A stretch of DNA of 64,000 nucleotides, from positions 1 to 64,000 of the forward strand of contig JBBISH010000013.1 of assembly GCA_037441385.1 (NCBI GenBank), read 5' to 3'. The notes below the pieces were generated by a model. It ran no database searches. It was not told where the DNA came from and was given only the letters and a program-made list of their open reading frames with translations. The DNA comes from Myxococcales bacterium (GTDB taxonomy: Bacteria > Myxococcota_A > UBA9042). The position numbers and the translations under genes were made by a program. Positions 3,599 to 60,035 of this stretch are shown piece after piece; positions within the stretch are counted from its first letter, which is position 1; each line of letters begins with the position of its first letter.

Positions 3599-4359
3599 GC
3601 TACTCCTGAGGCAGCCAAGGCGGCGACCTCGCTAGTTTGCAGCAAACCTGCCGGTGCGGCCGCCGCTTGTGGGGCAGGGCCTTGCAGGCGTTCGTCGCAC
3701 TGAATGGCGCCATCCCGGATCACCAACAGGCGGGTACCGACACGAGCGGCCTGTTCATCGTGGGTGACCATGACCACGGTGGCTCCGTGTTCGCTGGCCT
3801 GGCGGCGCAACAGCTGCAGGACTTCGCGGCCCGAGGCCGAGTCCAAATTCCCAGTGGGTTCATCCGCCAAAATGATCGGCGGCGCAGTTACAAAAGCGCG
3901 GGCGATCGCCACACGCTGCATCTCGCCGCCGCTAAGTTGGCCGGGCTTGTGGTCCAACCGGTGCCCAAGGCCAACGTGCTCGAGCAGCGCGCGGGCGCGG
4001 CCGCGGTCCTCGCCCGAGGCGGCCCGCCCCATCAGCACCGGCAGCAGCACATTCTCCATGGCGGTCAACGTGGGCAGCAAGTTGAAGAACTGGAAAATCA
4101 GGCCGATACGATTTCGACGGAACAGAGTGACTTCGTCGTCGCTGAGCGCGGCGATCGGCCGACCGTCCAGGATGATGGACCCGCTAGAGGGGCGATCAAG
4201 GGCGCTCAAAAGGTTGAGCAGGGTCGACTTGCCGCTGCCGGAAGGACCCATGATCGAGACGAATTCGCCGGGCGCAATCGCCAAGTTGACATCGCGCAGC
4301 GCCTCGACAGGCACGTCGCCGTGATCATAGCGTTTGCTGACGTGTTGAAGTTCAATCAT
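3595..4359 (-). CDS. ABC transporter ATP-binding protein (LolD/MacB type)
   Basis: GPSGSGKST Walker A, LSGGEMQRVAIARA signature, ILADEPTGNLD, VTHD. Confidence 0.93.
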   Translation of the reverse strand: MIELQHVSKRYDHGDVPVEALRDVNLAIAPGEFVSIMGPSGSGKSTLLNLLSALDRPSSGSIILDGRPIAALSDDEVTLFRRNRIGLIFQFFNLLPTLTAMENVLLPVLMGRAASGEDRGRARALLEHVGLGHRLDHKPGQLSGGEMQRVAIARAFVTAPPIILADEPTGNLDSASGREVLQLLRRQASEHGATVVMVTHDEQAARVGTRLLVIRDGAIQCDERLQGPAPQAAAAPAGLLQTSEVAALAASGVA

Positions 4360-4385
4360 AGATGACGCGCCACTACCCAGGCCTC

Positions 4386-43015: not shown

Positions 43016-44890
43016 TCAGGGCGCCTGGGGCGCCGGCAATCCCAGCACATAGGCCGCCACGGCCGCGGCCTGCTCGGCACTGAGCTGGATGCCGGCGTGG
43101 CGATTGGCCGGCACCAGCGCCGGTTGACTCAAAAGTGTTTGGACATAGCCCGGTTGCAGCCGACGGGCGCTACCGTCAAGGGTTGGCCCCTTCATGGTGC
43201 CGGCCCCAGCGGCCATGTGGCAAGTCGGGCAGCCAAGCTGAGCATACAAGTTGGCGCCATGACTCATCGCTTCGGCCGACGCCGTCGCTGGCTCGGCCAG
43301 GGGCACCCGATCGTCGCCCAGAGCGCCTTGCAGCCACGCGGCCAGCTGCTGAGCCTCGGCCGCCGTCATCCCCAGGATGGGCATGCGCTCGGCCTGATCC
43401 ATGCGCACGGTCACGGGCGACTGCAAGAAATCCTCTAGCCAGGCTCGGTTCAAACGGGCGCCGGCGCCGTCCAAGGCGATACGTGCGACATCGCCGCCGT
43501 GACCGCCGATGCTGTGGCAGACCAGACAGCGGAAGCGGTCGATCAGTCGGCCGGTTTGTCCGGCGGGCAGCCGCAGCTCGGGCGGGTCGTGGTCGCGCAG
43601 CAAGGTGGCGGGCAGTGGAACGGCGCGGAGGCTCGCCAGCGCCGTGCCGACCGCCAGGGCGTCGGCAGCAGTCAGGCCTGGCAGAGTGGGCATCCGCGCT
43701 GGCGCTCCGCCCTTCTGGTCAAAGGCCGTGGGGAGTTGCACCTTGCGGGCGACCCAGCTGGGCAGATCCGGCAGCGCCTCGCCCGTGGCGGTGTGCGGCA
43801 AGTCGACCACGTGGCGATCGCCCAGTCGATCCAGCGCGGGGGCGATCTGGGCGCCCAGTTGGCCCGCCACGCGATGGCAACCCGCGCAGCCCAGATCCGC
43901 AAAGAGCTTCTTGCCTTGCACGGCCTTGGTCGGCTCCACCGGCGCTTCGTACGCCTTCCACGGCGGCTCGCCCGAATCGGCCAGCCACTCCTCGCCGGCG
44001 TAGGTGGCGATGTCCAGCGCTTCTTGGGGGGCAAGGCGGAAGCCAGGCATGCGCGTGTGGGGTCGCAGGCGGTGGGTGTCAACGAGCAGCGTGAAGATCC
44101 AGGCCGGCTGCAGCTTCATGCCGGCCAGGGCCAAGTCGGGCCCCACGTCGCCGCCGCGGCCGTCGATCTTGTGACAGGTGGCACAGCGCCTGGTCGCCAC
44201 AGCCTTTTTGCCGCGCTCGCCGTCGCCGGTCAGGTCCGCAGGCAGCGGCGCCAGGGCCGGACCCGGGACACTCCAAAGGTAGGCGACCAAGGCCTCGATC
44301 TCTTCGGAATTCAGGCGAAACGTTGGCATGCGGTGGCTCGCCTGGAGCTTGCCAGGGTCGGCCAACCAGGCGCGCACAAAGCCCGGCGACACCGCGTCGC
44401 GCAAACCGTCGAGCTCTGGGGCAAAGTCGGGCCGGGGAACGCCAGGGATGGCATGGCAACCGGCGCAGCCTTTGTCGGCCAAAAGCTGGCGACCTTTCGC
44501 CACTTGCGGCACCGGTGCCTGGGCGCCCAGGTGGCAGCGACCGCAGGCGGCGGCCTGCTCGGCTGGTGAGAACAGCGGGCGCTCCCAGTCCATGCTGACC
44601 AAGTGCGCGGCTTCTTTGCGCGTCGCAAAGCCCTGGCCGCCGTGGCAGACGGTGCAGCCAAAGCGTTCGGGCGGATGGGCGTCGTCCAATCCCGCGTGGT
44701 GCTTTGGGTTTTCGTGGCAGAGCTCGCAGCGGTCCACCGCGCCCAAGGCCGGGACAAGCCGCTGCTGAACTTGGGCTGGCCGGCCGGCATCCACGACCAC
44801 CGCATAGCCAAACAGCAGCGCACAGGCCAAGGCCGTCAAAGCGAAAGCCCAATGCAGCCGGTCACTTTGAAGGGCTGAATTGCTGCTCAT
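43016..44890 (-). CDS. Membrane-anchored 8-heme cytochrome c
   Basis: CELCH, CTVCH, CGRCH, CAGCH, CATCH, CAGCH, CLVCH, CPTCH; N-terminal TM; ATGA overlap with cytochrome b. Confidence 0.9.
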   Translation of the reverse strand: MSSNSALQSDRLHWAFALTALACALLFGYAVVVDAGRPAQVQQRLVPALGAVDRCELCHENPKHHAGLDDAHPPERFGCTVCHGGQGFATRKEAAHLVSMDWERPLFSPAEQAAACGRCHLGAQAPVPQVAKGRQLLADKGCAGCHAIPGVPRPDFAPELDGLRDAVSPGFVRAWLADPGKLQASHRMPTFRLNSEEIEALVAYLWSVPGPALAPLPADLTGDGERGKKAVATRRCATCHKIDGRGGDVGPDLALAGMKLQPAWIFTLLVDTHRLRPHTRMPGFRLAPQEALDIATYAGEEWLADSGEPPWKAYEAPVEPTKAVQGKKLFADLGCAGCHRVAGQLGAQIAPALDRLGDRHVVDLPHTATGEALPDLPSWVARKVQLPTAFDQKGGAPARMPTLPGLTAADALAVGTALASLRAVPLPATLLRDHDPPELRLPAGQTGRLIDRFRCLVCHSIGGHGGDVARIALDGAGARLNRAWLEDFLQSPVTVRMDQAERMPILGMTAAEAQQLAAWLQGALGDDRVPLAEPATASAEAMSHGANLYAQLGCPTCHMAAGAGTMKGPTLDGSARRLQPGYVQTLLSQPALVPANRHAGIQLSAEQAAAVAAYVLGLPAPQAP

Positions 44891-46038
44891 TGCGGCCACC
44901 ACATCAGCGCCCAGCCTGGGCCGCGGAACAGCGTGCCGATCACGGTCGTCACCGCCATGAACAGCAACAGCAGGCCAAATAACGCTTGGGCAATCCGGCG
45001 CTCTTTGGGCAGGTACTGACCCACACCCAAAGCATGGGTGTCCATGTAGGGCAGTAGGCACAGACCTAGCACGGTGGCGGCCGGAACGAAGACGCCGCCC
45101 CAAAACGCCGAATAGTGCGCAAGCTCTTGAACACCCAGGAAATACCACGGCGCTTTGGCCGGGTTGGGCGTGCGCGAGGGATCGGCTTCGGGTTCGAGCG
45201 GCGCTTGCAGCCACAGCGCCAGCGCCAACAGTACCGCGGTCGCGGCCAGCGCCACGATCAATTCGCGGTAGACCAAGTGCGGCCACGCCGGCACCAACTT
45301 GTGGCCCTCTTCGCCGCGACCGCCGCCAGGAGCGTTTTCGCTGACGACTAACCCGCCGTCTTTGCGCACGCGGAACAAATGGAAGCCCACGACCAGAAAC
45401 AGGATCGCCGGCAACGCTACGCAGTGCAGCACATAGAAGCGCAAGAGCGCCGACTCGCCCACACTGCGGTCGCCCAGGATCAACTGACGAAAATCGTCAC
45501 CTACGAACGGAACGGCGGCGGCCATGTTGGATCCCACCGTAACCGCCCAATACGCCAACTGATCCCAGGGCAGCAGGTAGCCCGTGAAGCTGAGGGCCAA
45601 GGTCAGGAACCACAGGCCTACGCCCGCCACCCAGTTGGCCTGGCGAGCGCCCTTGTAGCCGCTGACCAGGTAGACGCGGACCATGTGGAGCGTGACCATC
45701 GCCACCATGGCGTGGGCCGCCCAACGGTGGGCGTTGCGGGTCAGCGTGCCCAGCGGCACCACAAAGGCCAGATCCTTCATCGTGCGCCAGGCCGCGTCCG
45801 GGTGGGGAATGTAATAGAACATCAGGTAGATGCCTGTTGCCGTCAGCTGCAAAGCCAGCACCAGCGAGATCAGACCAGCCGCCCAACTGGCGCGGAACTT
45901 CAGACTCTCTGGCCGGATTTTTGGCGCATGCACGTGCAGCACCAGCGACGAGAGCATGGCCTTGACGGCCGAGCGCTCGTCCTGTGGCCAGCCGATGCGC
46001 CACACGGACTTCCAGATGCCCTGCAGCCACTTGCCCAT
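44887..46038 (-). CDS. qcrB: Cytochrome b of a Rieske/cytb complex (b6 plus subunit IV fused)
   Basis: RNAHRW...HMVRV, TGYLLPWDQLAYWA, RFYVLH...H, PAKAPWYF (PEWY equivalent). Confidence 0.93.
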   Translation of the reverse strand: MGKWLQGIWKSVWRIGWPQDERSAVKAMLSSLVLHVHAPKIRPESLKFRASWAAGLISLVLALQLTATGIYLMFYYIPHPDAAWRTMKDLAFVVPLGTLTRNAHRWAAHAMVAMVTLHMVRVYLVSGYKGARQANWVAGVGLWFLTLALSFTGYLLPWDQLAYWAVTVGSNMAAAVPFVGDDFRQLILGDRSVGESALLRFYVLHCVALPAILFLVVGFHLFRVRKDGGLVVSENAPGGGRGEEGHKLVPAWPHLVYRELIVALAATAVLLALALWLQAPLEPEADPSRTPNPAKAPWYFLGVQELAHYSAFWGGVFVPAATVLGLCLLPYMDTHALGVGQYLPKERRIAQALFGLLLLFMAVTTVIGTLFRGPGWALMWWPQ

Positions 46039-46041
46039 GAG

Positions 46042-46500
46042 TTACCCCACTTGCAGGCGCGTATCGCCCGCAACCGTCTGCGCCAGGTCGGCGATGACGT
46101 TGCCGCGGGCGTCGCGGATCAGGCGCACGAAACTCAGGTCGCGGGGCGCCGGTCCACCCGTGACATGGCCCTGGTCGTCGTAGGTGCTACCGTGGCAGGG
46201 GCAGACGAAGCCGCCGCCGGCCGCCTCGCGCACCGTGCAGCCCAAGTGGGTGCAGGTCGACGACATCGCCGACAGCCCCTTGGGATCGTGGCGCACGAAC
46301 AGCCCGGCGTCGTCGACATAGACGCGGCCCCCGGCGAACCGCCCGACTTGCCCCAGGTTGCGGCGCTGCGACGGCCCGTAGCTGACCGGCGCTTTGGCAA
46401 ACCGCAGGCTGGCCCAGGCGGCCTCAGCGCTGAGCGCCACCAAGGCCGCGCCGCCGATCTGACCCAAGAACTTGCGACGACTGGTGTTTTGCTGTTCCAT
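46042..46500 (-). CDS. qcrA: Rieske 2Fe-2S protein with Tat signal
   Basis: SRRKFL, CTHLGC, CPCHGS, GPAPRDL. Confidence 0.93.
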
Positions 46501-46519: not shown

Positions 46520-47116
46520 TTACTTGGCTTTCAAGGTGACGGCGACCGCGGCTGGCGCGCCTGCGGCGACCGTGACTTGGATGTCAGCGGCGCCCAGCTT
46601 TTCGTGCCACACGCCCAAGGTGTAGTTGCCCGGAGCCAGGCTACTCAGGGTGAACTTGCCCTCCTTGTCGCTGACGGCGAACTGGGCGGTGTCCAGCACC
46701 ACCACGTAGGCGATCATGTCGTCGTGGACCTTGCAGAGCTGGCGGTAGATGCCCGACTTGGCAAAAACGTGGGACTTCTTCTGCCCTTGCGGCCAGGTGC
46801 CCAGGTCGTACTTGTCGCCGTCGATGGTGTAGACGTTGTGGGCCACCGGGTCCGAGTTCAAGAACTCCACCGTCCAGCCGCGGGCGATCGGCAGGATCCG
46901 CGGCAAGAACACCATGCCTTTTTGGTCCAGCGTCACGGTCTTGGCGCCCAGCGGCGCGGCCGGGCCCTGCTTGACGTAGACGATGGCGCCCGCGCGGTGC
47001 TTGGGGATCGGCGCGGCCACGGTGCCCGCGATCGAGCCGGTATCGGCCAGGGCGGTCGGGCCCCAGAAAAGAGTAGTCGAAATCAGCGAAATCAGGGTCA
47101 ACAGACGAGCCAGCAT
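46520..47116 (-). CDS. Secreted cupredoxin-domain protein with carboxypeptidase-regulatory-like domain
   Basis: Signal peptide; NSDPVAHNV and CKVHDDM (His, Cys, His, Met type-1 Cu ligands); VWHE. Confidence 0.8.
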
Positions 47117-47146: not shown

Positions 47147-48466
47147 TTAGAAAGCGGCCGAAAAACCAGCCGAGACCGCGCGCAAGTCCGCCTTGGTGCC
47201 GGGATCCGCACCCACGCCGACATCGGCGCGGAGCAGCAGGTTCGGCCGCAGGATCCAAGTGCCTTGCAGCGAGGCAAGATAGCGCTGATCGGGCTTGCCC
47301 TCGCCGTAGTCCAGGCTGCTGCCCTCGAAGCGGATCGTGGGCACCACCACCGCGTTGACCATGTAGGTCAGCTCGGCAAACAGCATGTCCATCGTCATCT
47401 TCTGCCCGGCGGTGGCGGTGGGCTGGCTATGGCTTTGGCGCACGCCCACCACGTCCAGCAGCAAGTCGTCGAATACGCCGTGCAAGTCCACGCCGATGCG
47501 CAGGAAATCGTCGTCATGGATGGCCATGCCGTTGGCGGCTAGCAGACCGCTGCGGCCCGACCAGGCCGAAAAGCCCAAGGAGAGACTGCGCTCGCTCCAA
47601 GCTGCCGCGCCCGCCGCCGCGTCGGCGCCGTCCAAACGCATACCGCCCAGCTTGTACTCCAGCCGGCCGTAGAAGTTCTTGTGCGCGTCGGTGCTGGCCG
47701 GCACCGTTTCGGCGACGCCCAGGGCCCACGCCGCCCGGCCAAAGGCCACGCCGGACAGTTCAAGGCCAGTCGAGCTCATTTCGGGCGAGAAGCCGTTGAG
47801 TTGCACGGTGTTGGTGGTCAAACGCAGTTGGTGATTGAAGATGCCGCGGTGGATCGACACGCCATGCAGCTCGGGCTCGAAGCGGCCCACCCGCACATGC
47901 AGCGCCGTGGGCCCGGCCGGCGTCAGCACCGCAAAGGCGCGCTCGACGCTAATGGGCTCGTGACCGCCCACGTCGATCGAGCCAAAGTAACCGCCGATTT
48001 CGCCAAGCGTTCCGCCCGAGCGCAGGCCGATGTGCCCGCCCAGACCGCCCAGGGCCAGCGCGTTTTCGTTGTGGCCTTCGGGCATCTCCATCCCGGCCAT
48101 CGCGGCACCCTCGTGGTGCCCCTCGGGCTCGGGGCCAAAGGTCATCTTGCCGTCGACCAGCAGCGACAGCGGCAGCTGACGGGCGACCTGACCGGGCCAA
48201 ACCGCAGCTGGGTAGCGGTCTTTCATCGCGTCGTTGCCCAGCGGCAGCGGCTCTTCCTTTTCGGCCGTCGCGTCACCGCCACCCGGGAAGCGGTAGGCAT
48301 TGCGGCGGAAGGCCTCGCCAAATGGCGTGAGCTTGGGGAAGGCGACGTGGCAGGTCTGACAGCTGGTCTCGTAGCGGCGGGCAAAGGCCGGAATAGCCTG
48401 CGCCTGACCGGCCAGCAACAGCACGGTCATGGCCGCACACAGGGCGGCGATACGCTGAAAAAGCAT
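47147..48466 (-). CDS. Cyc2-like cytochrome c-porin fusion
   Basis: Signal peptide ending AQA, then IPAFARRYETSCQTCH...PKLTPFG..F...Y; beta-strand body; C-terminal Phe; AGGAG RBS. Confidence 0.8.
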   Translation of the reverse strand: MLFQRIAALCAAMTVLLLAGQAQAIPAFARRYETSCQTCHVAFPKLTPFGEAFRRNAYRFPGGGDATAEKEEPLPLGNDAMKDRYPAAVWPGQVARQLPLSLLVDGKMTFGPEPEGHHEGAAMAGMEMPEGHNENALALGGLGGHIGLRSGGTLGEIGGYFGSIDVGGHEPISVERAFAVLTPAGPTALHVRVGRFEPELHGVSIHRGIFNHQLRLTTNTVQLNGFSPEMSSTGLELSGVAFGRAAWALGVAETVPASTDAHKNFYGRLEYKLGGMRLDGADAAAGAAAWSERSLSLGFSAWSGRSGLLAANGMAIHDDDFLRIGVDLHGVFDDLLLDVVGVRQSHSQPTATAGQKMTMDMLFAELTYMVNAVVVPTIRFEGSSLDYGEGKPDQRYLASLQGTWILRPNLLLRADVGVGADPGTKADLRAVSAGFSAAF

Positions 48467-48550
48467 AGGAAACTCCTGAATTGTGAACACAAGGCCAGGG
48501 CCGCGGCAGAGTCAGCCGGCAGCCGACGATCCAAGGGCGATCGCGCGGGC

Positions 48551-48994
48551 CTAGATGCGCAAACTCAGGGTAAGCAAGTAGGTGGGGGTGTCAGGATCGG
48601 GCGGGGCGCGGGCGCGCACCACCTGCGACTGCGCGGCCGACTGCACCAGCAGCAGGGCTTGCGGCTGCGGCGTGGCCACCGCGCCGGGCGGCGTGGCCAA
48701 GTGCTGGGCAGTGGCGTCGGGCGCAAGCTCGGCGTCGGGATGGTGGGGACTGTGGTCGCCGCAGTCGCACGATCCCTCGTCGTGCCAACCGGGGGACTGG
48801 CGAAGCTTGGCGCAGCAAGCGTGTTCAGGCTCGGCGCCGGTGAGGATCTTGCTGACCGCGCAAGAACCGCACAAGCACAGGTGTTCCACGCCGGAGAACT
48901 GCACCAGAGCCATGACGAGCATGACCAGGGCGGTCCAAAGGTGACGAACGCGCTTGAGCACCACAGCCAACCGACGCCGGCCAAATGCCGACAT
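48551..48994 (-). CDS. DUF2946/CruR-like leader protein with Cys/His cluster and RAPP motif
   Basis: Hydrophobic N-segment, CLCGSC, HACC, CDCGDHSPHH, VVRARAPP near the C-terminus; start uncertain. Confidence 0.65.
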   Translation of the reverse strand: MSAFGRRRLAVVLKRVRHLWTALVMLVMALVQFSGVEHLCLCGSCAVSKILTGAEPEHACCAKLRQSPGWHDEGSCDCGDHSPHHPDAELAPDATAQHLATPPGAVATPQPQALLLVQSAAQSQVVRARAPPDPDTPTYLLTLSLRI

Positions 48995-49213
48995 TTCTAC
49001 CCTGGCAGAGTCGCCGGCCGATTGCAAGAAGTTTCTTAGATAGGCAGGCTTGGCTGTCATGCGGCCGTCACGCAAGGTACGAAGACAACATAGCTAAATG
49101 GTCATACTGCCGTTGCATCCGGCGTGCGCAGCTGCTGTAGCTTGGCCCTCGCCTCCGTTCCATGGCACGCTGCGCAGCCGGCGGCCAGCGACTGGCCGCA
49201 AGGGGCCGAGCGC

Positions 49214-49903
49214 ATGTCCGGCGACCTCATTCTTTCCAGCGGCTTTCTGGCCTTTGCCCGCCACTTGGGCGTGGTGCAGGCGCTGCGCGACGCGGGCGAG
49301 CGGCCCGACGCCCTGGTCGGGACCTCGTCGGGCGCAGTGGTCGCGGCGCTCACGGCGGCTGGCGTGCAACCCGAGACCGTTCTTGCTGATTTGGACGGCC
49401 TGGTGCCGTGGCGCGGGCTGCGGCTACACCGGCGGCCGTGGCGCGGGCTGTGCGAGGCCCCAGCGCTGCAAGCCCTGCTCGAACGCTATCTGCCTGCGAG
49501 GTTTGAGGATCTGCCACTGCCGCTTGCGGTGGGGGTCGTCGCGCCGGGCAAGGTCCACCGGCTGCTGACGGCGGGGCCGCTGGTGCCGGCGGTGCTGGCG
49601 TCGTGCGCAATGCCGGGTGTCTTTGCGCCGGTTGTGGTCGAGGGCATTCCGTTGGCCGATGGCGGCGCCGTGGACCGGGTCGCCGTGGACCCGTGGCGGC
49701 TGTGGCGGCCCGGCCGGCTGGCGTGGGTGCATCAGGTCATGCGCACAGCCGGCGTGGATCGCGGCGAGGATCGCACCGGCACCGTGTGGATCGAAACCCC
49801 GCGTTCCGGCGCCAGCTTCTTGAGCTTGGGCGACGTACGCGGTCAAGCCGAGCTGGCGCGGCAACTGGCGGCGGTAGCGCTGGCGAGCTGGGAGCAGACA
49901 TAG
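49214..49903 (+). CDS. Patatin-like phospholipase
   Basis: GTSSG, ASCAMPG, DGG. Confidence 0.85.
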   Translation: MSGDLILSSGFLAFARHLGVVQALRDAGERPDALVGTSSGAVVAALTAAGVQPETVLADLDGLVPWRGLRLHRRPWRGLCEAPALQALLERYLPARFEDLPLPLAVGVVAPGKVHRLLTAGPLVPAVLASCAMPGVFAPVVVEGIPLADGGAVDRVAVDPWRLWRPGRLAWVHQVMRTAGVDRGEDRTGTVWIETPRSGASFLSLGDVRGQAELARQLAAVALASWEQT

Positions 49904-51019: not shown

Positions 51020-51103
51020 TTTCCGCCAGTAGAAAATGGCCGCCCAAGCCAGCACCGCGTTGCCAAGGCGGCAGCAGTGGCCCACAATGGCGGCGAGGAC
51101 CCC

Positions 51104-53401
51104 ATGGCCACGGCGAAACAACCCACCGCTTTGCGCAACTGGCCGCTGCTGGTGGCGGCGCTGGCCACGCTGCTGTGTACGGCGCTGCTGGCCGGGCACA
51201 AGGGCGGGCTGTACACGCTCGCCGCGCTGGACTCGTGGGAGTTGGACACCGTCGACGCTCGCTTTGCCGTGCGCGGACCGCTGCCGGCAGTGGGCGACGA
51301 CATCGTCATCGTGGGCTTTGACGACCAACTGCGGCGCGAGGCCCCGGACGTGCTGCAACAGCGCGCCGGCTGGGCGCGTTTCTTGGACGCCCTGGCCCGT
51401 TATCAGCCGCGCATGGTGGCGCTCGATGCCTTCTTTGCCGAGCCCGAGCAAGTGCTGCCGGCCGAGACCGTGACGCAGGTCAACGCAGCCCTGCAAGCTT
51501 TGGAATTGGCCCAGGAAAGCACCTCGACGGTGCACACGGCAGCGCTGCGGGCCTTGCGGGCGGTGCGCGAAGCCACCCGCGGGGACCAGAAGTTGACGGC
51601 GGCGCTGCAGCGCTCTGGCAACGTGCTCCTGGGGGCGCTGTTCTTTGTCGACGACGGCGAACGCAACCCAGCGCCCAGCAACCTACCTGAACCACCTGGG
51701 ATTCGCGGGGCGCGGGTCGGCGACGCGGCCGTGCTGGACCGCCCGGTGGGGCTGCGACCGCTGCGGGCCGAGCCCGACGTGTATGGCTCGCTGCCCGAGC
51801 TGGCCAAGGTGGCGGCGGGCGCTGGCGCGGTCAATGTGGTGCGCGACGAGGGCGGCGCGGTGCGCCGGGTCCCCCTGGTGGTCGAGCACGCCGGGCGCTA
51901 CTACCTGCCGTTGGGGTTGACACTGGCAGCGCGCTCGCAGGCCTTGGGTCCTAACCGGCCGGCAGCAGCGAGCTACGCGGCGGGGGCCCGCGAATTGACC
52001 CTGGGTAATCGGGTGTTGCCCGTGGACCCGCGCGGGATTGCCAATCTGGGCTGGCTGGGTCCCAGCGGCACATTTCCCTACTTTTCGGCCGCCGATGTGC
52101 TGGCCGGACGGGTGCCCCAGACCAAGCTGACCGGCAAGCTGGTGGTGGTGGGCTACACCGACGCGGCGCGCGACCGCGTGACGACTCCGTTCTCGCCGGC
52201 CCAGCCCGGCGTAGAAGTTCACGCGACCTTGGCGCACAACGCCATCTACGGCGGGCTGTTGCAGGGCACACCGGGCTGGTTGGGGCTGCTGGTCGTGCTG
52301 GGCAGTGGCGCGATCCTGACGCTGCTGCAGTTGCGGCGGGTGCGGCAAAAGCGCACCTGGCTGGTGGGCGTGGCGGGGGCCTTGCTGGCCGCGCTGTGGC
52401 TGGGTCTGGCGCAGTGGTTGTTCGTGCGCGGCTACATCGTCGAGTTGGCGGCGCCGCTCGTGTCGCTGGTGCTGGTGTCGCTGGCCTCGACCTCGACGGC
52501 GCTGGTCACCGAAGGCCGCGAAAAGGCGCACCTGCGCAAGGCTTTTGCCCATTACGTCTCGGGCCATCTGGTCGACCGCATCTTGGCGGATCCCGAGCGG
52601 GTGCGGCTGGGCGGCGAGCGGCGTGAGCTCAGCGTGCTGTTCTCGGACATACGCGGGTTTTCGCGCTTCTCGGAGCAGATGGAACCCGAGGCCCTGTCGG
52701 CCTTTTTGAACGAGTACCTGACGCCGATGACCCGCATCGTGCTGGACCAGGGCGGCATGCTCGACAAGTACATCGGCGATGCGGTGATGGCGGTGTTTGG
52801 TGCGCCCCTGGCCATGGACGACCATGCGGACGCGCTGTGCCGCACCGCGCTGCAGATGCAGGCGACTCTGGTGCAGCTGCGGTCGGTCTGGGCAGCGCGC
52901 GGCCTGCCGCCCCTCGAAATCGGCGTGGGTCTGAACGCTGGCCCCATGTCCGTGGGCAACATGGGTTCAGAGATGCGCTTTGATTACACGGTAATGGGCG
53001 ACGCAGTCAACCTGGCCTCGCGGCTGGAAGGCCTGACCAAAGAGTACCACTGCGCCATCTTGTGCGGGCCGCGGGTGCCCGAACTGGCCGGGCCGGAATT
53101 CGTGTTTCGCGAGCTAGACTTTGTGCGCGTCAAAGGCCGCGGCGGCGTGGTGCGGGTGTTCGAGCTTTTGGGCACCCAGACGGCTTGCCCGCTCGACGCC
53201 GAGGGCCGCGAACTGTATGCTGCAGGCTTGGTTGCCTACCGTGCTCGCCAGTGGGGCGAGGCCGATGCCGCCCTGGCCCGGTTGCTCGCCCGCGCTCCCG
53301 GAGATGGTCCAGCGGCAGTCCTGCGCGAGCGGGTGCGCGCGTTGGCGAGCGATCCGCCCCCCGGCGATTGGGATGGTGCCTATGAACAGCAAAACAAATA
53401 G
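51104..53401 (+). CDS. CHASE2-domain class III adenylate cyclase
   Basis: CHASE2 (PGVEVHA), 3 TM, FSDIRGFS, DKYIGDAVMA, DYTVMGDAVNLASRLE, VKG. Confidence 0.93.
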   Translation: MATAKQPTALRNWPLLVAALATLLCTALLAGHKGGLYTLAALDSWELDTVDARFAVRGPLPAVGDDIVIVGFDDQLRREAPDVLQQRAGWARFLDALARYQPRMVALDAFFAEPEQVLPAETVTQVNAALQALELAQESTSTVHTAALRALRAVREATRGDQKLTAALQRSGNVLLGALFFVDDGERNPAPSNLPEPPGIRGARVGDAAVLDRPVGLRPLRAEPDVYGSLPELAKVAAGAGAVNVVRDEGGAVRRVPLVVEHAGRYYLPLGLTLAARSQALGPNRPAAASYAAGARELTLGNRVLPVDPRGIANLGWLGPSGTFPYFSAADVLAGRVPQTKLTGKLVVVGYTDAARDRVTTPFSPAQPGVEVHATLAHNAIYGGLLQGTPGWLGLLVVLGSGAILTLLQLRRVRQKRTWLVGVAGALLAALWLGLAQWLFVRGYIVELAAPLVSLVLVSLASTSTALVTEGREKAHLRKAFAHYVSGHLVDRILADPERVRLGGERRELSVLFSDIRGFSRFSEQMEPEALSAFLNEYLTPMTRIVLDQGGMLDKYIGDAVMAVFGAPLAMDDHADALCRTALQMQATLVQLRSVWAARGLPPLEIGVGLNAGPMSVGNMGSEMRFDYTVMGDAVNLASRLEGLTKEYHCAILCGPRVPELAGPEFVFRELDFVRVKGRGGVVRVFELLGTQTACPLDAEGRELYAAGLVAYRARQWGEADAALARLLARAPGDGPAAVLRERVRALASDPPPGDWDGAYEQQNK

Positions 53402-54431
53402 ACCGTTGGCCGGTCTGCTCTCGCTTGTCCCGGTCGGCTCGCTGCTGCTGGTGGCGCTGATGGCGTGCGGCAAGAGCGAGGCACCAGCAGCCAGCGACTC
53501 GCCCGCGGGCGAAGTAGAGGCCGTAGAAGGCACGGTGACCGCTCAGCGCGCCGCCGCCCCGCAACCGCGCACCTTGACTGTGAAAGCGCCGGTCTTTGCC
53601 GACGACACCGTGACCACCCCCGCCAGCGGCAGCGTGACGATTCGCTTGCTCCACAATCTGGCGCAGTGGCACCTGGAGGGCGGCCTGAGCAAGCGCGTGG
53701 ATCAGAGCGCCGCCTTTGCCGCGCCGCGCGACGCTGCTCCACAACCCCTGGCGAGCAAAACGGAACCCACCGTGACCGCGTCGGCCGGCCGCCACAGCGA
53801 ACACGAAGCGGCGGGTTCGGCCGAAAGTGCCGTGCGCGCCCCCGCGCCCATGCCCGCCCCAGTCGCGGCGCCCTCGCCGACCCCAGCGGCCCAAGATCAG
53901 CCGGCCGAGCGCGCGGCGGAGCACAAACCCAGCCCGGCCAAGAAAGCCGCTCTGCGCGAAATGGCATCCAAAACCGGGGTCATCAAGGCCTTGGAAGTGG
54001 GAGGCGCCCCCTTGCAGGCGCCGTCACCGCCGGTGGGCAGCGGCGGCGGGAACGCGGACGCCAAGAAGGGCGACTCCGGCGGGCTGCGCAAGGCGGGTGG
54101 CGGCGGCGACGTGGAGGTGGTCAAGGCGCAGCTGCAGGTTGCCCAAGAGACCGTGCGCGCCGACCTGACCAACTGGATGAACCGGTTGCGCAGCGCCATG
54201 GCGAACTGTGCCGAGGTCGCGCTGCGCCAAGGCCTGGAATTGCCGCCGAGCGTCAGGATTGTCGCGACCTTGGGTACCGAGGGTGCGCTGGTGCAAGCCG
54301 AAGTCGAGGGCGTCAGCGGCGGTGCGGCCCAGTGCATGCGGTCGCGCTGGCAGGCGTTGCGCAACCTTCCGGCGGTCGAGTCGCCGGTGCCGTTCACGGT
54401 CGTATACACTCTGCGCCTGGCGGATATGTAG
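53382..54431 (+). CDS. Lipoprotein with FecR-like N-domain and AgmX/TonB-C-like C-domain
   Basis: Lipobox LMAC; GEV.AVEG.V...L...VF.DD.V.T pattern; Pro/Ala linker; C-terminal domain with two Cys. Confidence 0.6.
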   Translation: MNSKTNRPLAGLLSLVPVGSLLLVALMACGKSEAPAASDSPAGEVEAVEGTVTAQRAAAPQPRTLTVKAPVFADDTVTTPASGSVTIRLLHNLAQWHLEGGLSKRVDQSAAFAAPRDAAPQPLASKTEPTVTASAGRHSEHEAAGSAESAVRAPAPMPAPVAAPSPTPAAQDQPAERAAEHKPSPAKKAALREMASKTGVIKALEVGGAPLQAPSPPVGSGGGNADAKKGDSGGLRKAGGGGDVEVVKAQLQVAQETVRADLTNWMNRLRSAMANCAEVALRQGLELPPSVRIVATLGTEGALVQAEVEGVSGGAAQCMRSRWQALRNLPAVESPVPFTVVYTLRLADM

Positions 54432-54534
54432 ACTTGTAGCAAAACCGTCACGGTGTCCTGGACACGCCCCTGGGAATATGCCGGAATGCGCAATACGGGT
54501 CCCGTTGGACCACGCAGCCTGGCACGGGGGACCC

Positions 54535-56706
54535 ATGAGCCGAACACCGCTGGTATTCCTACTCGTCTTGGCCGGTTGGTTGGCGGCTTGCAGCGACGGA
54601 GCCGTGACCCCGGTCCTGGTTGCGGCCGACGGCAGCAGCGCAGGCAGCGACGCAAACCTGGGGGACAGCAGCCTGGGCGACAGCAGCTTGGGCGACACGA
54701 CGACCACCTGCTACTCGTGCCACGGCGACCCACAGAACGGCAACGAAGCGCCGCCGCTGGGCACCAAAGGCCAAGAGTTCCCTACCGATCCCGCTGTGGG
54801 CGCCCACCAGTACCACCTGGAGTCCAGCACCTGGCACCGCAGCGTGGCCTGCGCCGAGTGCCACACCGTCCCCACCGAGATGCAGCACAGCAATGGCAAG
54901 GTGGACACGGTGTTTTCGGGCGTGGCGATCGCCGCCGGCGCGACCCCCACCTTTGACGGCGCCGCCCTGTCCTGCAGCAACGCCTATTGCCACGGCGTCA
55001 CCCTGCGGCCCGCCAAGGCCGGCGCCAGCCAAGAGCGGACGCCCATCTGGAACGTGGTGGATGGCACCTACAACGCCTGCGGCTCGGCCTGCCACACCAC
55101 CCCGCCCGGCGGCAACCACCCGCAAGAAACGACGTGCGAAAAATGCCACGGCCAGGTGATCGCCAGCTTTGACCCCGTCAAGAACAAGGCCAAGTGGGTC
55201 GACGCCCAGCTGCACGTGAACGGCAAGGTCGACAGCGCGGTCACTTGCACGACCTGTCACGGCGACCCGGCCAACGGCAACGAGGCGCCGCCACTGGGCA
55301 CCAAGGGCGAGACCCTGACCAGCCAGGCGGCCGTGGGCGCACACCAGAACCACTTGGCGGCGTCGACCTGGCACAAGCAGGTCGGCTGCGAAGAGTGCCA
55401 CCAAAAGCCGACGCAGCTGCTCCACGCGAACGGCACGGTGGACATGCAGTTCGGTCCGATCGCCACGGCCAAGAGCGCCAAACCCTGGCTGGACAAAGAC
55501 AAGCTGAGTTGCAGCGGCACCTACTGCCACGGCACCACCTTGCTGCCGGCCAAGGCGGGCGCGAGCGCCGCCCAACAGCCCGTGTGGACGCAAGTCGACG
55601 GCACCTTCAACGCGTGCGGGACGGCCTGCCACACCACCCCGCCCGGCGGGACCCACCCCAAGGATGACAAGTGCGGCACCTGCCACGCGCCGGTCATCGC
55701 CAGCTTTGACCCCGCCACCGGCAAAGCCACCTGGAAGGATGCGAGCTTGCACATCGACGGCAAGGTCGAGGGGGGCGGCTACCACGGCCTGAGCGGCTGG
55801 GTGGGCAACCGCTTCAACCCCGATGGCACCGTGAGCAAAAACCACCACGGGGCCAGCTACTTCTTGGGCAATCAGCAGCGCGACGACAAGAACACCCCCT
55901 GCAGCCAATGCCACGGCGCGGACTACAGTGGCGGCACGGCGGGCGTGTCGTGCAACAACAATGGCGCTGGCTGCCACGGCAAGAACCCGGCCAACGGCAC
56001 CGGCGGCAACTGGCAGGCCTGCAATTTCTGCCACGGCGGCCCCAGCCAAAACAACCCGCCGATCGGCGTGGCCAACGAGCAGACCAGCGGCAGCCTGGCT
56101 GTAGGTCGCCATGGCCCGCACCTGACGGCGGGCGCCTCGCACGTGGCCTTTAGCTGCAACCAATGTCACGTGGTGCCACCGGCTGGCAACGTCGCGCACA
56201 CGCTGGAGTATGTGCCCAGCGCCGACCTGAGCAGCGCCGGCCACCACGGCGACGTGACCTTGGCCGCCGCGTCAACCGCCTACAACAGCACGGGCGGCAT
56301 GACCTGGAACGTCGCCGCCACGCAAGGCAATCCCGCCAGCGCCCGCGGCACCTGCAGCGGCGCCTGCCACAGCAACGGCCGCGGCGGCGCCCCCGCAGTC
56401 ACGCCCTACTGGGCCGGCGGCAGCTGGAACAGCGGCAACTGCGGCAACTGCCACGCCGCCGAGCCGATGACCAAGCACCACGGCGACCACCTGAGCGGCG
56501 AGAACTACGTGGCCTGCAGCAACTGCCACCCCGGCGCCAGCCAGGCCACCCACGTCAACGGAATCCGCGACGTCAAGGCCAGCATCTCGGGCGCGCCGTA
56601 TGCGGGCGGCGTGACGGTGACCTTTGGGCCCACCGCCGGCTGCAAGAACGGTGTGACCTGCTCGGGGACGTGCCACGACGAAGTGCACAACAGCCGGTGC
56701 TGGTAG
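54535..56706 (+). CDS. CxxxxCH/CxxCH multiheme cytochrome c lipoprotein (up to 18 heme motifs)
   Basis: Lipobox LAAC; 11 CxxCH, 4 CxxxCH, 2 CxxxxCH, 1 Cx6CH; internal 537-bp duplication. Confidence 0.9.
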   Translation: MSRTPLVFLLVLAGWLAACSDGAVTPVLVAADGSSAGSDANLGDSSLGDSSLGDTTTTCYSCHGDPQNGNEAPPLGTKGQEFPTDPAVGAHQYHLESSTWHRSVACAECHTVPTEMQHSNGKVDTVFSGVAIAAGATPTFDGAALSCSNAYCHGVTLRPAKAGASQERTPIWNVVDGTYNACGSACHTTPPGGNHPQETTCEKCHGQVIASFDPVKNKAKWVDAQLHVNGKVDSAVTCTTCHGDPANGNEAPPLGTKGETLTSQAAVGAHQNHLAASTWHKQVGCEECHQKPTQLLHANGTVDMQFGPIATAKSAKPWLDKDKLSCSGTYCHGTTLLPAKAGASAAQQPVWTQVDGTFNACGTACHTTPPGGTHPKDDKCGTCHAPVIASFDPATGKATWKDASLHIDGKVEGGGYHGLSGWVGNRFNPDGTVSKNHHGASYFLGNQQRDDKNTPCSQCHGADYSGGTAGVSCNNNGAGCHGKNPANGTGGNWQACNFCHGGPSQNNPPIGVANEQTSGSLAVGRHGPHLTAGASHVAFSCNQCHVVPPAGNVAHTLEYVPSADLSSAGHHGDVTLAAASTAYNSTGGMTWNVAATQGNPASARGTCSGACHSNGRGGAPAVTPYWAGGSWNSGNCGNCHAAEPMTKHHGDHLSGENYVACSNCHPGASQATHVNGIRDVKASISGAPYAGGVTVTFGPTAGCKNGVTCSGTCHDEVHNSRCW

Positions 56707-58390: not shown

Positions 58391-58487
58391 AAGTGCCAAG
58401 GATCGCACAGGTTTCCAACGCATTCACGGCGCCAGTGGCTATGCGGTGAGGCTGGCACAAGAAGGGCCCAACAAGGGGTGAAGAGGG

Positions 58488-60035
58488 ATGCTGAGTCCGG
58501 CTATTTTGTCGAAGATCAATCAGTTGTGGGATCGGTTCTACTCGGGCGGCATCGCCAACACCCTATTGGCCATGGAGCAGATCAGCTACCTGCTGTTCAT
58601 GCGCCGGCTGGACGCCACCGACCGCGACCGCGCCGAGAACGCGGATTTTACGGGCATCCCCTACAAGACCGTGTTCACGGTGACGGACAAGGAAGGCAAC
58701 ACGCTGCCCGCCGACGACCTGCGCTGGAGCAGCTGGCGTCACCTGCCGGCCGAGGACATGCTGAACCACGTGCGCGACAAGGTGTTTCCGTTCATCAAGA
58801 ACCTGGGCGGCGAAGGGGCCAACTTCTCGGCGCGTATGCAAGACGCGGTGTTCCTCATCCCCAAGCCGTCGCTGCTGATCGAAGCGGTCGGCATCCTGGA
58901 CGCCATCTACCGCGACATCGACCGCGAGCGCGCCGAGCACGGCCAGGTCTTCCACGATACCCAAGGCGACATCTACGAGTACCTGCTGTCCGAAATTGCG
59001 ACCTCGGGCAAAAACGGCCAGTTCCGCACGCCGCGCCACCTGATCCAGCTGATCGTGGCGATGGTCGACCCCAAGCTGGGCGACGAGATCTGCGACCCGG
59101 CCTGCGGCACCGGCGGGTTCTTGCTGGGCAGCTACCAGCACATCGTGACCCAGCACACCAGCCCGGCCCAGCGCGTCACCGACGAAAATGGCTTTGCGTG
59201 TGGCCACTTGGGCGATCAGCTGACCGACGAGCGGCAATGGCAGGTGCTCCGTGAACAAACCCTGTACGGCTTTGACTTCGATACGACCATGGTGCGCATT
59301 GGCCTGATGAACCTGATGCTGCACGGCATCGACGCACCCAACCTGAGCTACCAAGACACGCTGGGCAAGCGCTACGACGAGCACGACCGCTACGACGTGG
59401 TGCTGGCCACCCCGCCGTTCAAGGGCAGCATCGACAAGGGCGACATCCACGAGGGCTTGAAGCTCAAGACCACCAAGACCGAGCTGCTGTTCGTGGCCAA
59501 GATCATCGCCCTTCTGCGCATGGGTGGCCGGGCCGGGGTGATCGTGCCCGACGGCGTCTTGTCCGGATCGTCGAACGCCCACCAAGACTTGCGGAAGCTC
59601 CTGGTCGACGAGTGCCAGCTGCAGGGCGTGCTGTCGATGCCGGCCGGGGTGTTCAAGCCGTACGCGGGCGTGTCGACCGGGGTGCTGTTCTTTGTGAAAG
59701 GCGGGCGGACCGACAAGGTCTGGTTCTACGACATGACGGCCGATGGGCGCTCGCTGGACGACAAACGCGAGAAGGTGAAAGAGAACGATATTCCGGATGT
59801 ACTGGCGCGGTGGCGCGGGCGGGATCCGGCGCGGGATACGGATCGGGCGGGGAAGGCGTTTTTTGTGGGTGTCGAGGAGATCCGGGCGGCGAAATATGAC
59901 TTGAGTATCAATCGGTACAAGCAGGTCCGGTACGAGGCGGTGGAGCATGAGGCGCCGGGGGTGATTTTGGCGAGGTTGCGGGATCTGGAGGCGGAGATTA
60001 GTCGGGAGATCGAGGAGTTGGGGGGGATGGTGTGA
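58488..60035 (+). CDS. hsdM: Type I R-M methyltransferase subunit (motif IV reads TPPF)
   Basis: GQFRTPRH, DPACGTGGFL, VLATPPF, IVPDGVL, YDLSINRY. Confidence 0.93.
   Translation: MLSPAILSKINQLWDRFYSGGIANTLLAMEQISYLLFMRRLDATDRDRAENADFTGIPYKTVFTVTDKEGNTLPADDLRWSSWRHLPAEDMLNHVRDKVFPFIKNLGGEGANFSARMQDAVFLIPKPSLLIEAVGILDAIYRDIDRERAEHGQVFHDTQGDIYEYLLSEIATSGKNGQFRTPRHLIQLIVAMVDPKLGDEICDPACGTGGFLLGSYQHIVTQHTSPAQRVTDENGFACGHLGDQLTDERQWQVLREQTLYGFDFDTTMVRIGLMNLMLHGIDAPNLSYQDTLGKRYDEHDRYDVVLATPPFKGSIDKGDIHEGLKLKTTKTELLFVAKIIALLRMGGRAGVIVPDGVLSGSSNAHQDLRKLLVDECQLQGVLSMPAGVFKPYAGVSTGVLFFVKGGRTDKVWFYDMTADGRSLDDKREKVKENDIPDVLARWRGRDPARDTDRAGKAFFVGVEEIRAAKYDLSINRYKQVRYEAVEHEAPGVILARLRDLEAEISREIEELGGMV

Follow-up and report, generated by a model that had tools for sequence, protein, structure and literature searches.

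What is a small Cys/His-rich gene doing at the head of a respiratory operon? The question is raised by a locus in a 64,000-nt stretch of DNA from a Myxococcales bacterium (assembly GCA_037441385.1, contig JBBISH010000013.1, positions 1 to 64,000), hereafter the window. Here, on the minus strand, a gene for a 147-aa protein (48551..48994, read from an ATG at 48994) stands ahead of genes for a Cyc2-like fused cytochrome-porin, a cupredoxin, a Rieske protein, a cytochrome b and a multihaem cytochrome c. An earlier note, made from the letters alone, had taken this upstream open reading frame (uORF), called the leader gene below, for a probable copper-sensing ribosome-arrest leader. The reading towards which we lean is that the leader is a variant of the CruR/CutF/RAPP-RGPP arrest class, which gates the cyc2-cupredoxin-Rieske/cytochrome b-multihaem operon by translational coupling.

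That the leader is a real gene under selection is clear. Among 5.8 billion proteins, a word-indexed search returned two relatives beyond the window's own copy, 69% and 67% identical, and a scan of one genome per species placed orthologous loci (L001 and L002) in metagenome-assembled genomes (MAGs) titled Deltaproteobacteria bacterium and uncultured Myxococcales bacterium. All three loci share one gene order: a divergent patatin-like gene, the leader, an outer-membrane protein of 439-442 aa, a cupredoxin-like protein of about 200 aa, a Rieske protein and a cytochrome b. A multihaem cytochrome c comes next in the window and in L002; L001 ends inside cytochrome b. The leader is in each case the first operon gene after a promoter-like element, divergent from the patatin gene, and the gap to the next gene measures 84-87 nt. 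A further candidate, L003 (37% identity over 62 residues, in an Aestuariivita MAG), was dropped, being antisense to another gene. A 14.6-bit match at 3610-4362 of the window was dropped as well; it is an antisense frame of an ABC ATPase gene, so no leader paralogue is present in the window.

Between the three loci, the whole-gene ratio of nonsynonymous to synonymous substitution rates (dN/dS) of the leader is 0.29-0.40 at a dS of 0.67-0.81. Calculated region by region (dS 0.5-1.3), the ratio is 0.14-0.26 for the N-terminus and helix, 0.06-0.14 for the Cys block and 0.04-0.30 for RARAPP plus the tail that follows it, and it reaches 0.72-1.20 in the 45-residue segment from H81 to RARAPP. These regional values indicate a frame that is translated and selected, apart from a freely drifting spacer. 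The proposal that the uORF is a real gene heading its operon is thus borne out by the low dN/dS and by its first place in all three loci. Over its whole length, the leader is 66-71% identical between loci, versus 85-89% for the cyc2-like protein. The G+C content of the window is 67.1%, and the G+C fraction at third codon positions (GC3) of the leader frame is 0.82.

The architecture of the protein can be followed from one end to the other. A hydrophobic segment, RHLWTALVMLVMALVQFSGV (residues 17-36, 48887..48946), is predicted by AlphaFold2 and hydropathy to be an N-terminal signal-anchor or transmembrane helix; residues 3-33 reach a predicted local distance difference test (pLDDT) score of 89-97. 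Ahead of the segment, the sequence reads basic at R6, R7, R8, K14, R15 and R17, and the positive-inside rule would give the protein an N-in, C-out topology. The next element is a Cys/His cluster, CLCGSC...EHACC...CDCGDH (residues 40-81, 48752..48877), a putative sensor, whose residues are C40, C42, G43 and C45, then H58, C60 and C61, and finally C76, C78 and H81. It is followed by a spacer (residues 82-126, 48617..48751), neutral in sequence and fixed in length, by RARAPP (residues 127-132, 48599..48616) and by a 15-residue tail, DPDTPTYLLTLSLRI (48554..48598), ahead of the TAG stop (48551..48553). The 84-nt intergenic spacer (48467..48550) contains the two inner hairpins of a three-way RNA junction and leads to the ATG of the cyc2-like gene (48464..48466), which has a strong Shine-Dalgarno (SD) sequence, CAGGAG, 6 bases ahead of it (48473..48478). 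Exact-coordinate translation confirmed the motifs first reported for this frame, the position of RARAPP 15 residues before the stop and the 84-nt gap.

Family, structure and plasmid searches with the window's leader were negative. Pfam and NCBIfam scans gave no family, a sequence-profile search of the PDB gave no match at E<=1, a Foldseek comparison of the model with the PDB gave none at E<=10 (the model is confident for the membrane helix only), and tblastn against plasmids found no match. In the AlphaFold2 model, residues 81-130 have a pLDDT of 47-55, and the tail neither packs against anything nor takes part in a folded domain.

At least 18 more distant relatives do exist. A profile of the three leaders, run against 1.84 billion representatives, matched 16 proteins at E<=1e-3, one of which, a close orthologue, is at E<=1e-10; an 18-sequence profile, used in a further indexed search, brought three more relatives. 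In the resulting alignment of 21 sequences, C40, C42, G43, C45, C60, C61, C76, C78 and H81 are invariant, and conservation is 90% or higher for H58, P131, P132, L140 and L145. The proteins are 134-212 aa in size, and a hydrophobic 17-mer precedes the Cys cluster across the family. The distance from C78 to the Arg of the motif stays within 47-53 residues in all 21 (mean 50.4, standard deviation 1.8); the other two inter-Cys gaps vary more (standard deviations 4.6 and 3.6). The best explanation is that the leader belongs to a previously unnamed family of membrane-anchored Cys/His leader proteins. By analogy with known arrest peptides, the spacer, fixed in length and free in sequence, would be the strongest argument for an arrest leader.

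The same conservation can be read in another way. The product of the leader could mainly be a lasting one, anchored in the membrane on the periplasmic side and serving the Cyc2 pathway as a metalloprotein or thiol-redox protein; it might, for instance, supply the cupredoxin with copper as its chaperone or associate with the cytochrome-porin. R[AG]PP would then act at most as a pause and the C-terminal decapeptide as a docking or sorting element. The cluster cysteines and H81, all invariant, and H58 (at least 90%) are what such a protein would show; its operon also encodes a copper-requiring cupredoxin, the size of the family members is that of small proteins and not of short leaders, and distant relatives share the amino acids of the tail. 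This alternative is nevertheless unlikely in our view. A neutral segment of 45 residues whose length is held to within three is odd for a linker of a mature protein and is expected of a nascent-chain ruler. Moreover, AlphaFold2 builds no folded domain that takes in the tail, no relative in the PDB was found by sequence or by fold, R[AG]PP is avoided elsewhere, and the leader diverges more between loci than the porin does, at the identities given above. The two roles, metalloprotein and arrest leader, are not mutually exclusive.

The motif itself was compared in the family and in the window. R[AG]PP stands at the aligned site in 16 of the 21 members, as RGPP in 11 and as RAPP in five; the other five have HGPP, TGPP, GGPP, PLPP and GGGG. 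In the three orthologues, RARAPP is identical despite synonymous changes (GCC/GCG, CCG/CCC, CCC/CCT), so that the conservation of RAPP in orthologous loci, which had been named as a check on the arrest proposal, is found in all of them. In the window, 38 frames have a high GC3 and are likely coding, the leader frame not being one of them; their 16,502 aa contain no R[AG]PP, and in all long frames of the window together it occurs 16 times in 80,676 aa. RARAPP in the leader is therefore more than chance. Proteomes are reported to avoid RAPP and RGPP strongly, the exception being positions near the C-terminus of small uORF products that are secreted or membrane-bound, and these two variants were found to arrest most robustly (Fujiwara 2025, PMC12992588).

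A reading with no programmed arrest at all makes the leader an ordinary small gene, coupled to the next one via a helix that masks the ribosome-binding site (RBS), and RAPP a conserved structural motif. The helix alone would account for coupling, and the five relatives lacking a canonical R[AG]PP agree with it. Against it, the spacing of the motif is fixed in both directions, towards the Cys cluster and towards the C-terminus, and translation was arrested by each of the seven C-terminal RAPP/RGPP proteins of S. lividans put to the test (Fujiwara 2025, PMC12992588). We regard this reading as improbable.

Behind the motif, all 21 sequences continue for 15-17 residues beyond PP, with the consensus G-x-P-hydrophobic-[YWF]-L-x4-L-[L/R]-I-COOH. 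Counted from the C-terminus, an aromatic residue is found at -9 in all 21, Leu at -8 in 20 and at -3 in 19, Leu or Arg at -2 in all 21 and Ile at -1 in 18; the sequence varies at positions -7 to -4, which a Pro/Gly-rich stretch precedes. Because the three loci differ by synonymous changes and distant relatives retain the same residues, the tail is under selection at the protein level. An origin of the terminal L-[L/R]-I in the RNA only, with CUC-CGC supplying an anti-SD CUCC, was considered and rejected for these three loci, where the codons are UUG CGC, UUG CGG and AUG CUC. Three roles of the tail can be named, all speculative: a spacer that sets the anti-RBS arm of the RNA just outside the stalled ribosome, a termination pause, or a C-terminal recognition or degradation signal.

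How the leader could act on the next gene is suggested by the RNA between RARAPP and the next start. On independent folding, the three loci give the same three-way junction (z = -2.26, -3.59 and -4.36 versus shuffles), in which an anti-RBS arm within the tail codons T138-S144 (48563..48582) pairs with the ribosome-binding region of the cyc2-like gene (48464..48481), SD and AUG included, as the 3' arm of the closing helices. In the three-sequence alignment, the 37 junction pairs are 92.8% paired, versus 26-43% with the partners slid by 1-3 columns. Compensatory changes are present in three junction pairs, a number reached by 20-22 of 500 shuffles. In none of the sequences does the 7-bp SD helix lose a pair (100%); it shows a G-C/G-U change at one place and a compensatory change at another, where AGU>AGC, synonymous in S144, goes together with A>G in the spacer. 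Without the tail arm, as would be the case with a ribosome on the stop codon, what is left of the RNA folds no better than shuffled sequence (z = 0.15, -1.04 and 0.36), and the SD is unpaired in the centroid structure of the window. An RBS-sequestering fold of this mRNA, which the earlier note had suggested looking for, is hence present and conserved in the three loci. No Rfam family was found in 48300-49300 at E<=1.

The position of a stalled ribosome relative to this junction can be estimated. A ribosome shields about 15 nt 3' of the codon in its P site. The stall register, with Pro codons in the P and A sites, was taken from published arrest peptides (Morici 2024, PMC10951233; Fujiwara 2025, PMC12992588) and puts the codon of P131 (48602-48604) in the P site. 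From the first base of this codon, the first weak helix of the arm is 22 nt downstream and the SD helix 33-35 nt. Since the arm begins 22-35 nt beyond and the footprint is about 15 nt, a ribosome stalled at RAPP would abut the junction without opening it. A ribosome on the last six codons, or in the act of terminating, would cover the anti-RBS arm. The simple picture known from SecM and CutF, in which the stall opens the hairpin, does not fit an arm located this far downstream.

The same stretch of mRNA is unusual in its base composition. The 60-nt windows of the leader mRNA that are richest in C and poor in G fall on RAPP and the tail in each of the three loci (C 0.45-0.50, G 0.18-0.28), which leaves room for Rho-dependent control of either sign. 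One form would be a CruR-type switch of opposite sign, in which the RAPP-stalled ribosome shields a C-rich Rho-loading site and the stall is the ON state; the ligand would relieve the stall, and Rho would then terminate transcription in the spacer. The C-rich windows resemble the C>G bubble mapped as a rut site in cruR (Roy 2022, PMC9426467), and the long spacer is like that of cruR loci. A stalled ribosome, however, would cover only about 30 nt of the C-rich stretch, the C-richness is partly due to Pro and Thr codons, and the conserved anti-RBS junction and the 15-codon tail are left without a role. Nor does the spacer offer a common terminator: a weak terminator-like hairpin followed by TTTTT was flagged in L001 only (759-786, two overlapping sites, in the spacer between leader and cyc2). 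On the whole, the CruR-type switch seems quite unlikely. The terminator scan gave none in the window or in L002; the T-run is present in L002 too, and the window reads CTGACTCTG at this place. A conserved attenuator-terminator is therefore not supported, the hairpin with T-run being flagged in one locus.

With arrest at RAPP and translational coupling as the preferred reading, the following sequence of events can be proposed. The nascent leader would be inserted N-in, C-out, and the Cys/His cluster would emerge on the periplasmic side. The ribosome would stall with R129-A130-P131 synthesized and P132 next, at which point the last Cys/His motif would be about 50 residues from the peptidyl-transferase centre, approximately what exit tunnel and translocon measure together. 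The cluster would bind metal or form disulfides, with Cu(I), Fe(II) or the periplasmic redox state as candidate signals, and this would alter the pulling force and so set the duration of the stall. During the stall, the ribosome would sit just 5' of the three-way junction, and the codons of T138-S144 would still pair with the SD and AUG of the cyc2-like gene. To translate the 15-codon tail, unwind the arm and expose the ribosome-binding site would take a ribosome that RAPP has released. Relief of arrest would in this way switch on translation of the cyc2-like gene, and then of the operon's other genes through coupling and polarity.

Several points weigh against this reading. Stalling at RAPP is deduced from the motif and its context, and the direction, in which relief means ON, is a geometric inference. 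The tail, made after the presumed arrest point, fits no known arrest model and could mean a function of the mature protein. Five of the 21 relatives carry no R[AG]PP at the aligned site, as listed above, and the 21 form a biased sample, found with profiles that contained the cluster, R[AG]PP and the tail. None of them reaches the DUF2946 gathering score of 23.7 bits, the best being at 16.6 bits. The genomic context comes from three closely related loci. The RNA covariation, over the same three sequences and within reach of the shuffles counted above, is suggestive, and the fold of a longer, 201-nt window has a z of only -1.67 versus shuffles. The C-rich, G-poor stretch would also fit CruR-like Rho control of the opposite sign. 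Finally, the leader itself has no strong SD sequence, and its start codon is uncertain.

This uncertainty concerns the extreme N-terminus. The longest frame of the leader (48551..49075) has a TTG start and 174 aa, and the gene caller placed the start of the protein (P0002) at 49060. An alternative start, GTG GTG at 48959-48964, aligns with the ATG start of both orthologues. The gene-caller start coincides with a conserved -35-like hexamer and the frame upstream of the leader is closed in L002, for which reasons the conservation upstream of the leader is probably at the DNA level and regulatory. The hexamer, ATGACA (49055-49060), and a -10-like AAGAAA (49032-49037) make up a promoter-like element (49032..49060, minus strand). 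Both orthologous loci read GTGACA-17-AAGAAT there and the window ATGACA-17-AAGAAA; the promoter scanner flagged the element in L001 and L002, and the window copy, with A for T at the last -10 position, was unflagged. A perfect palindrome, AAGAA-nn-TTCTT (AAGAAnnTTCTT), overlaps the element and may serve as an operator for transcriptional control. Element and palindrome lie between the divergent patatin gene and the leader (window 49025-49075, minus strand; L001 236-264; L002 9916-9944).

What the putative sensor responds to can be guessed at with less confidence. Copper is a tentative choice, made by analogy and from the cupredoxin of the operon: the characterised relatives of the arrest logic (CruR, CutF and the S. 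lividans cases) are copper-linked in the published descriptions covered, and the cupredoxin has a C-x2-H-x2-M site. Against copper, the downstream genes are respiratory and not homeostatic, and periplasmic cysteines could equally report the thiol-redox state or Fe(II). A redox or disulfide signal is a rather doubtful candidate; iron seems unlikely, and so does any other ligand.

The first gene under the presumed control encodes a 439-aa protein (47147..48466, minus strand). By published criteria, a Cyc2 has one CXXCH only, with AXPXFAR[Q/K][T/Y] upstream and PXL four residues further on; it is 365 aa or longer and contains a porin of 16 strands (Keffer 2021). In all three loci, the protein shows AIPAFARRY-ETS-CQTCH-VAF-PKL, in agreement with the sequence criteria save for R in place of Q/K at one position. 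The window's copy, with its 439 aa, is also long enough; its N-terminus, MLFQRIAALCAAMTVLLLAGQAQA, reads as a signal peptide, and it ends in ...SAAF, with F as the last residue. No Pfam or NCBIfam family was found above threshold. For a 16-stranded OprO/OprP-like barrel the one hint is a nearby ESM Atlas cluster in which 12% of the members have Porin_O_P, the AlphaFold2 model from a three-sequence alignment having a mean pLDDT of 26, too low to show a fold. The label "porin" given to this gene is too narrow, as the motifs are those of the Cyc2 fused monohaem cytochrome-porin.

The remaining genes of the operon, all on the minus strand, complete a respiratory set. A 198-aa protein (46520..47116) combines a Pfam Copper-bind domain (24.1 bits, cutoff 21.2) with CarboxypepD_reg (40.9 bits), and the type-1 copper ligand pattern H...C-x2-H-x2-M is readable in its sequence. 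Such a pairing of a plastocyanin/azurin-type copper site with a transthyretin-like (carboxypeptidase-regulatory-like) domain is unusual beside cyc2. The position of this gene next to cyc2 presumably recalls that of rusticyanin. Pfam and NCBIfam scans then identify a Rieske 2Fe-2S protein (46042..46500) and a cytochrome b of the fused b6/subunit IV type (44887..46038). The last gene encodes a multihaem c-type cytochrome with eight CxxCH motifs (43016..44890), its ATG overlapping the stop codon of cytochrome b; the best NCBIfam matches of this cytochrome, all below cutoff, are ExtS/ExtP/ExtQ-type proteins of Geobacter-like operons. From its gene content, the operon would seem to be a module for iron oxidation or for extracellular electron transfer.

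On the other side, beyond the divergent patatin gene, the plus strand carries a CHASE2-domain adenylate/guanylate cyclase (51077-53401). A second large multihaem cytochrome, with the Geobacter CxxxxCH...CxxCH motif, is encoded just past the patatin gene (54208-56706, plus strand), and a type I restriction-modification methylase (HsdM-like) lies at 58482-60035 (plus strand).

Little is understood of what turns on the cyc2-type operons of iron oxidation. If the proposed mechanism is true, metal or redox sensing by a nascent chain reaches beyond copper homeostasis to a cyc2-type iron-oxidation or extracellular electron-transfer chain, which gains a testable control point, and the reach of RAPP/RGPP arrest is widened past secretion and copper homeostasis. 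The fixed spacer of 47-53 residues and the conserved tail provide experimental handles. One may go further and see here, tentatively, a new family of arrest peptides: a periplasm-facing Cys/His sensor whose distance from an R[AG]PP gate is exactly that of tunnel plus translocon, with a conserved post-gate tail whose codons form the anti-RBS arm and whose terminal L-[L/R]-I, in common with actinobacterial DUF6153 leaders, would have a second function, relief of arrest switching the cyc2-type operon ON.

The leader fits several features of RAPP/RGPP arrest uORFs (Fujiwara 2025, PMC12992588): its motif is close to the C-terminus, it is shorter than 300 aa and membrane-bound, and a co-oriented gene follows. 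The arrest-leader idea of the earlier note therefore stands as far as architecture goes (anchor, Cys/His cluster, fixed spacer, R[AG]PP), and it fails on membership of DUF2946. The leader of the window matches no family at E<=10 in a search for Pfam DUF2946 (PF11162). The best-scoring family member, P0017, is collinear with model positions 10-117 of 117 (E=0.014), a sub-threshold match that hints at distant kinship; when P0017 was used as a query for DUF2946-bearing proteins, only itself and one 56%-identical relative were returned, neither with a Pfam domain. Nor is the pairing of such a leader with a respiratory porin operon as new as had been supposed, as the source data of Fujiwara 2025, in the part covered, already contain RAPP uORFs upstream of genes for "carbohydrate porin" (at least 54) and "cytochrome ubiquinol oxidase subunit I" (at least 89). 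The Cys motifs of the leader family did not turn up in the searched part of the uORF lists of that paper, which is not evidence of absence, and we found no paper naming both Cyc2 and DUF2946.

The closest comparison is with CruR (Bp2923) of Bordetella pertussis, a DUF2946 uORF that uses its CXXC and RAPP to regulate, by way of Rho, the transporter encoded downstream (Roy 2022, PMC9426467). Both are proteins of about 145 aa with an N-terminal export signal or transmembrane segment (in the leader with a predicted orientation), both are first in their operon and followed by a long spacer, and both have a Cys motif fixed about 45-50 residues before RAPP and a C-rich region around the motif. In more than 2000 DUF2946 proteins, the spacing between CXXC and RAPP is constant at 45 +/- 2 residues, and five extra residues in the CruR spacer impaired copper control (Roy 2022, PMC9426467). 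The only CXXC of the leader (C42-G-S-C45), by contrast, is 81-107 residues before the motif across the family; several cysteines and two histidines take the place of a single CXXC, and 15-17 residues follow the motif instead of about 3. RAPP is needed for downstream expression in CruR, which works by Rho termination, whereas the leader has a conserved RBS-masking junction. The genes served differ as well: a TonB-dependent transporter and a PepSY protein for CruR, the cyc2/bc-type respiratory set for the leader.

CutF of Rhodobacter capsulatus, also of DUF2946, shows another solution, in that stalling exposes the ribosome-binding site of cutO (Ozturk 2025, 10.1101/2025.02.05.636593). It is a co-translationally exported Cys protein, as is predicted for the leader, and its several cysteines, proposed to switch disulfides or metal binding, have a counterpart in the Cys-rich leader. 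A stall near the C-terminus of CutF controls a stem-loop that masks the SD of the next gene, to which the predicted RBS-masking junction would be the analogue. In CutF, though, the stalled ribosome melts the stem-loop and stall means ON, whereas the masking arm of the leader, 22-35 nt beyond the P site, is outside the footprint. The target of CutF is a multicopper oxidase, versus a cyc2-like gene here.

A third group is formed by the DUF6153 RAPP leaders of Actinomycetota, found upstream of DUF305 and multicopper-oxidase genes by the hundreds in the source data of Fujiwara 2025 (PMC12992588), where "DUF6153" occurs at least 321 times and "LLRI" at least 216 times. Like the leader, they have a transmembrane helix, a His/Cys cluster, a variable spacer and RAPP. 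Their tails, which read ...RAPP[S/D]L..LQLLRI or ...LSRLLI, end in LLRI, SLRI or RLLI; the likeness of ...RAPPSLAELQLLRI in these leaders to ...RAPPDPDTPTYLLTLSLRI in ours, L-R-I or L-L-I, was judged by eye only. Given these endings, metal-linked RAPP leaders from another phylum again show a post-RAPP tail that ends in L-[L/R]-I, and the conserved tail, of which the main text of Fujiwara 2025 makes no mention, may be a general, overlooked part of the arrest class. The groups are distinct in other respects: the tail is 15-17 aa long versus 10, the Cys pattern is another one, and no match to Pfam DUF6153 was found in the 21 members (at E<=10 for 18 and E<=1 for the other three).

The arrest peptides ApdA, ApdP and those of the SecM type (Morici 2024, PMC10951233; Sakiyama 2021), finally, have the R-A-P-P core and the N-terminal export signal in common with the leader. 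They monitor Sec/YidC activity from a place upstream of sec/yidC genes and have no Cys/His cluster; the leader carries such a cluster, its putative sensor, and stands ahead of a cyc2-like gene.

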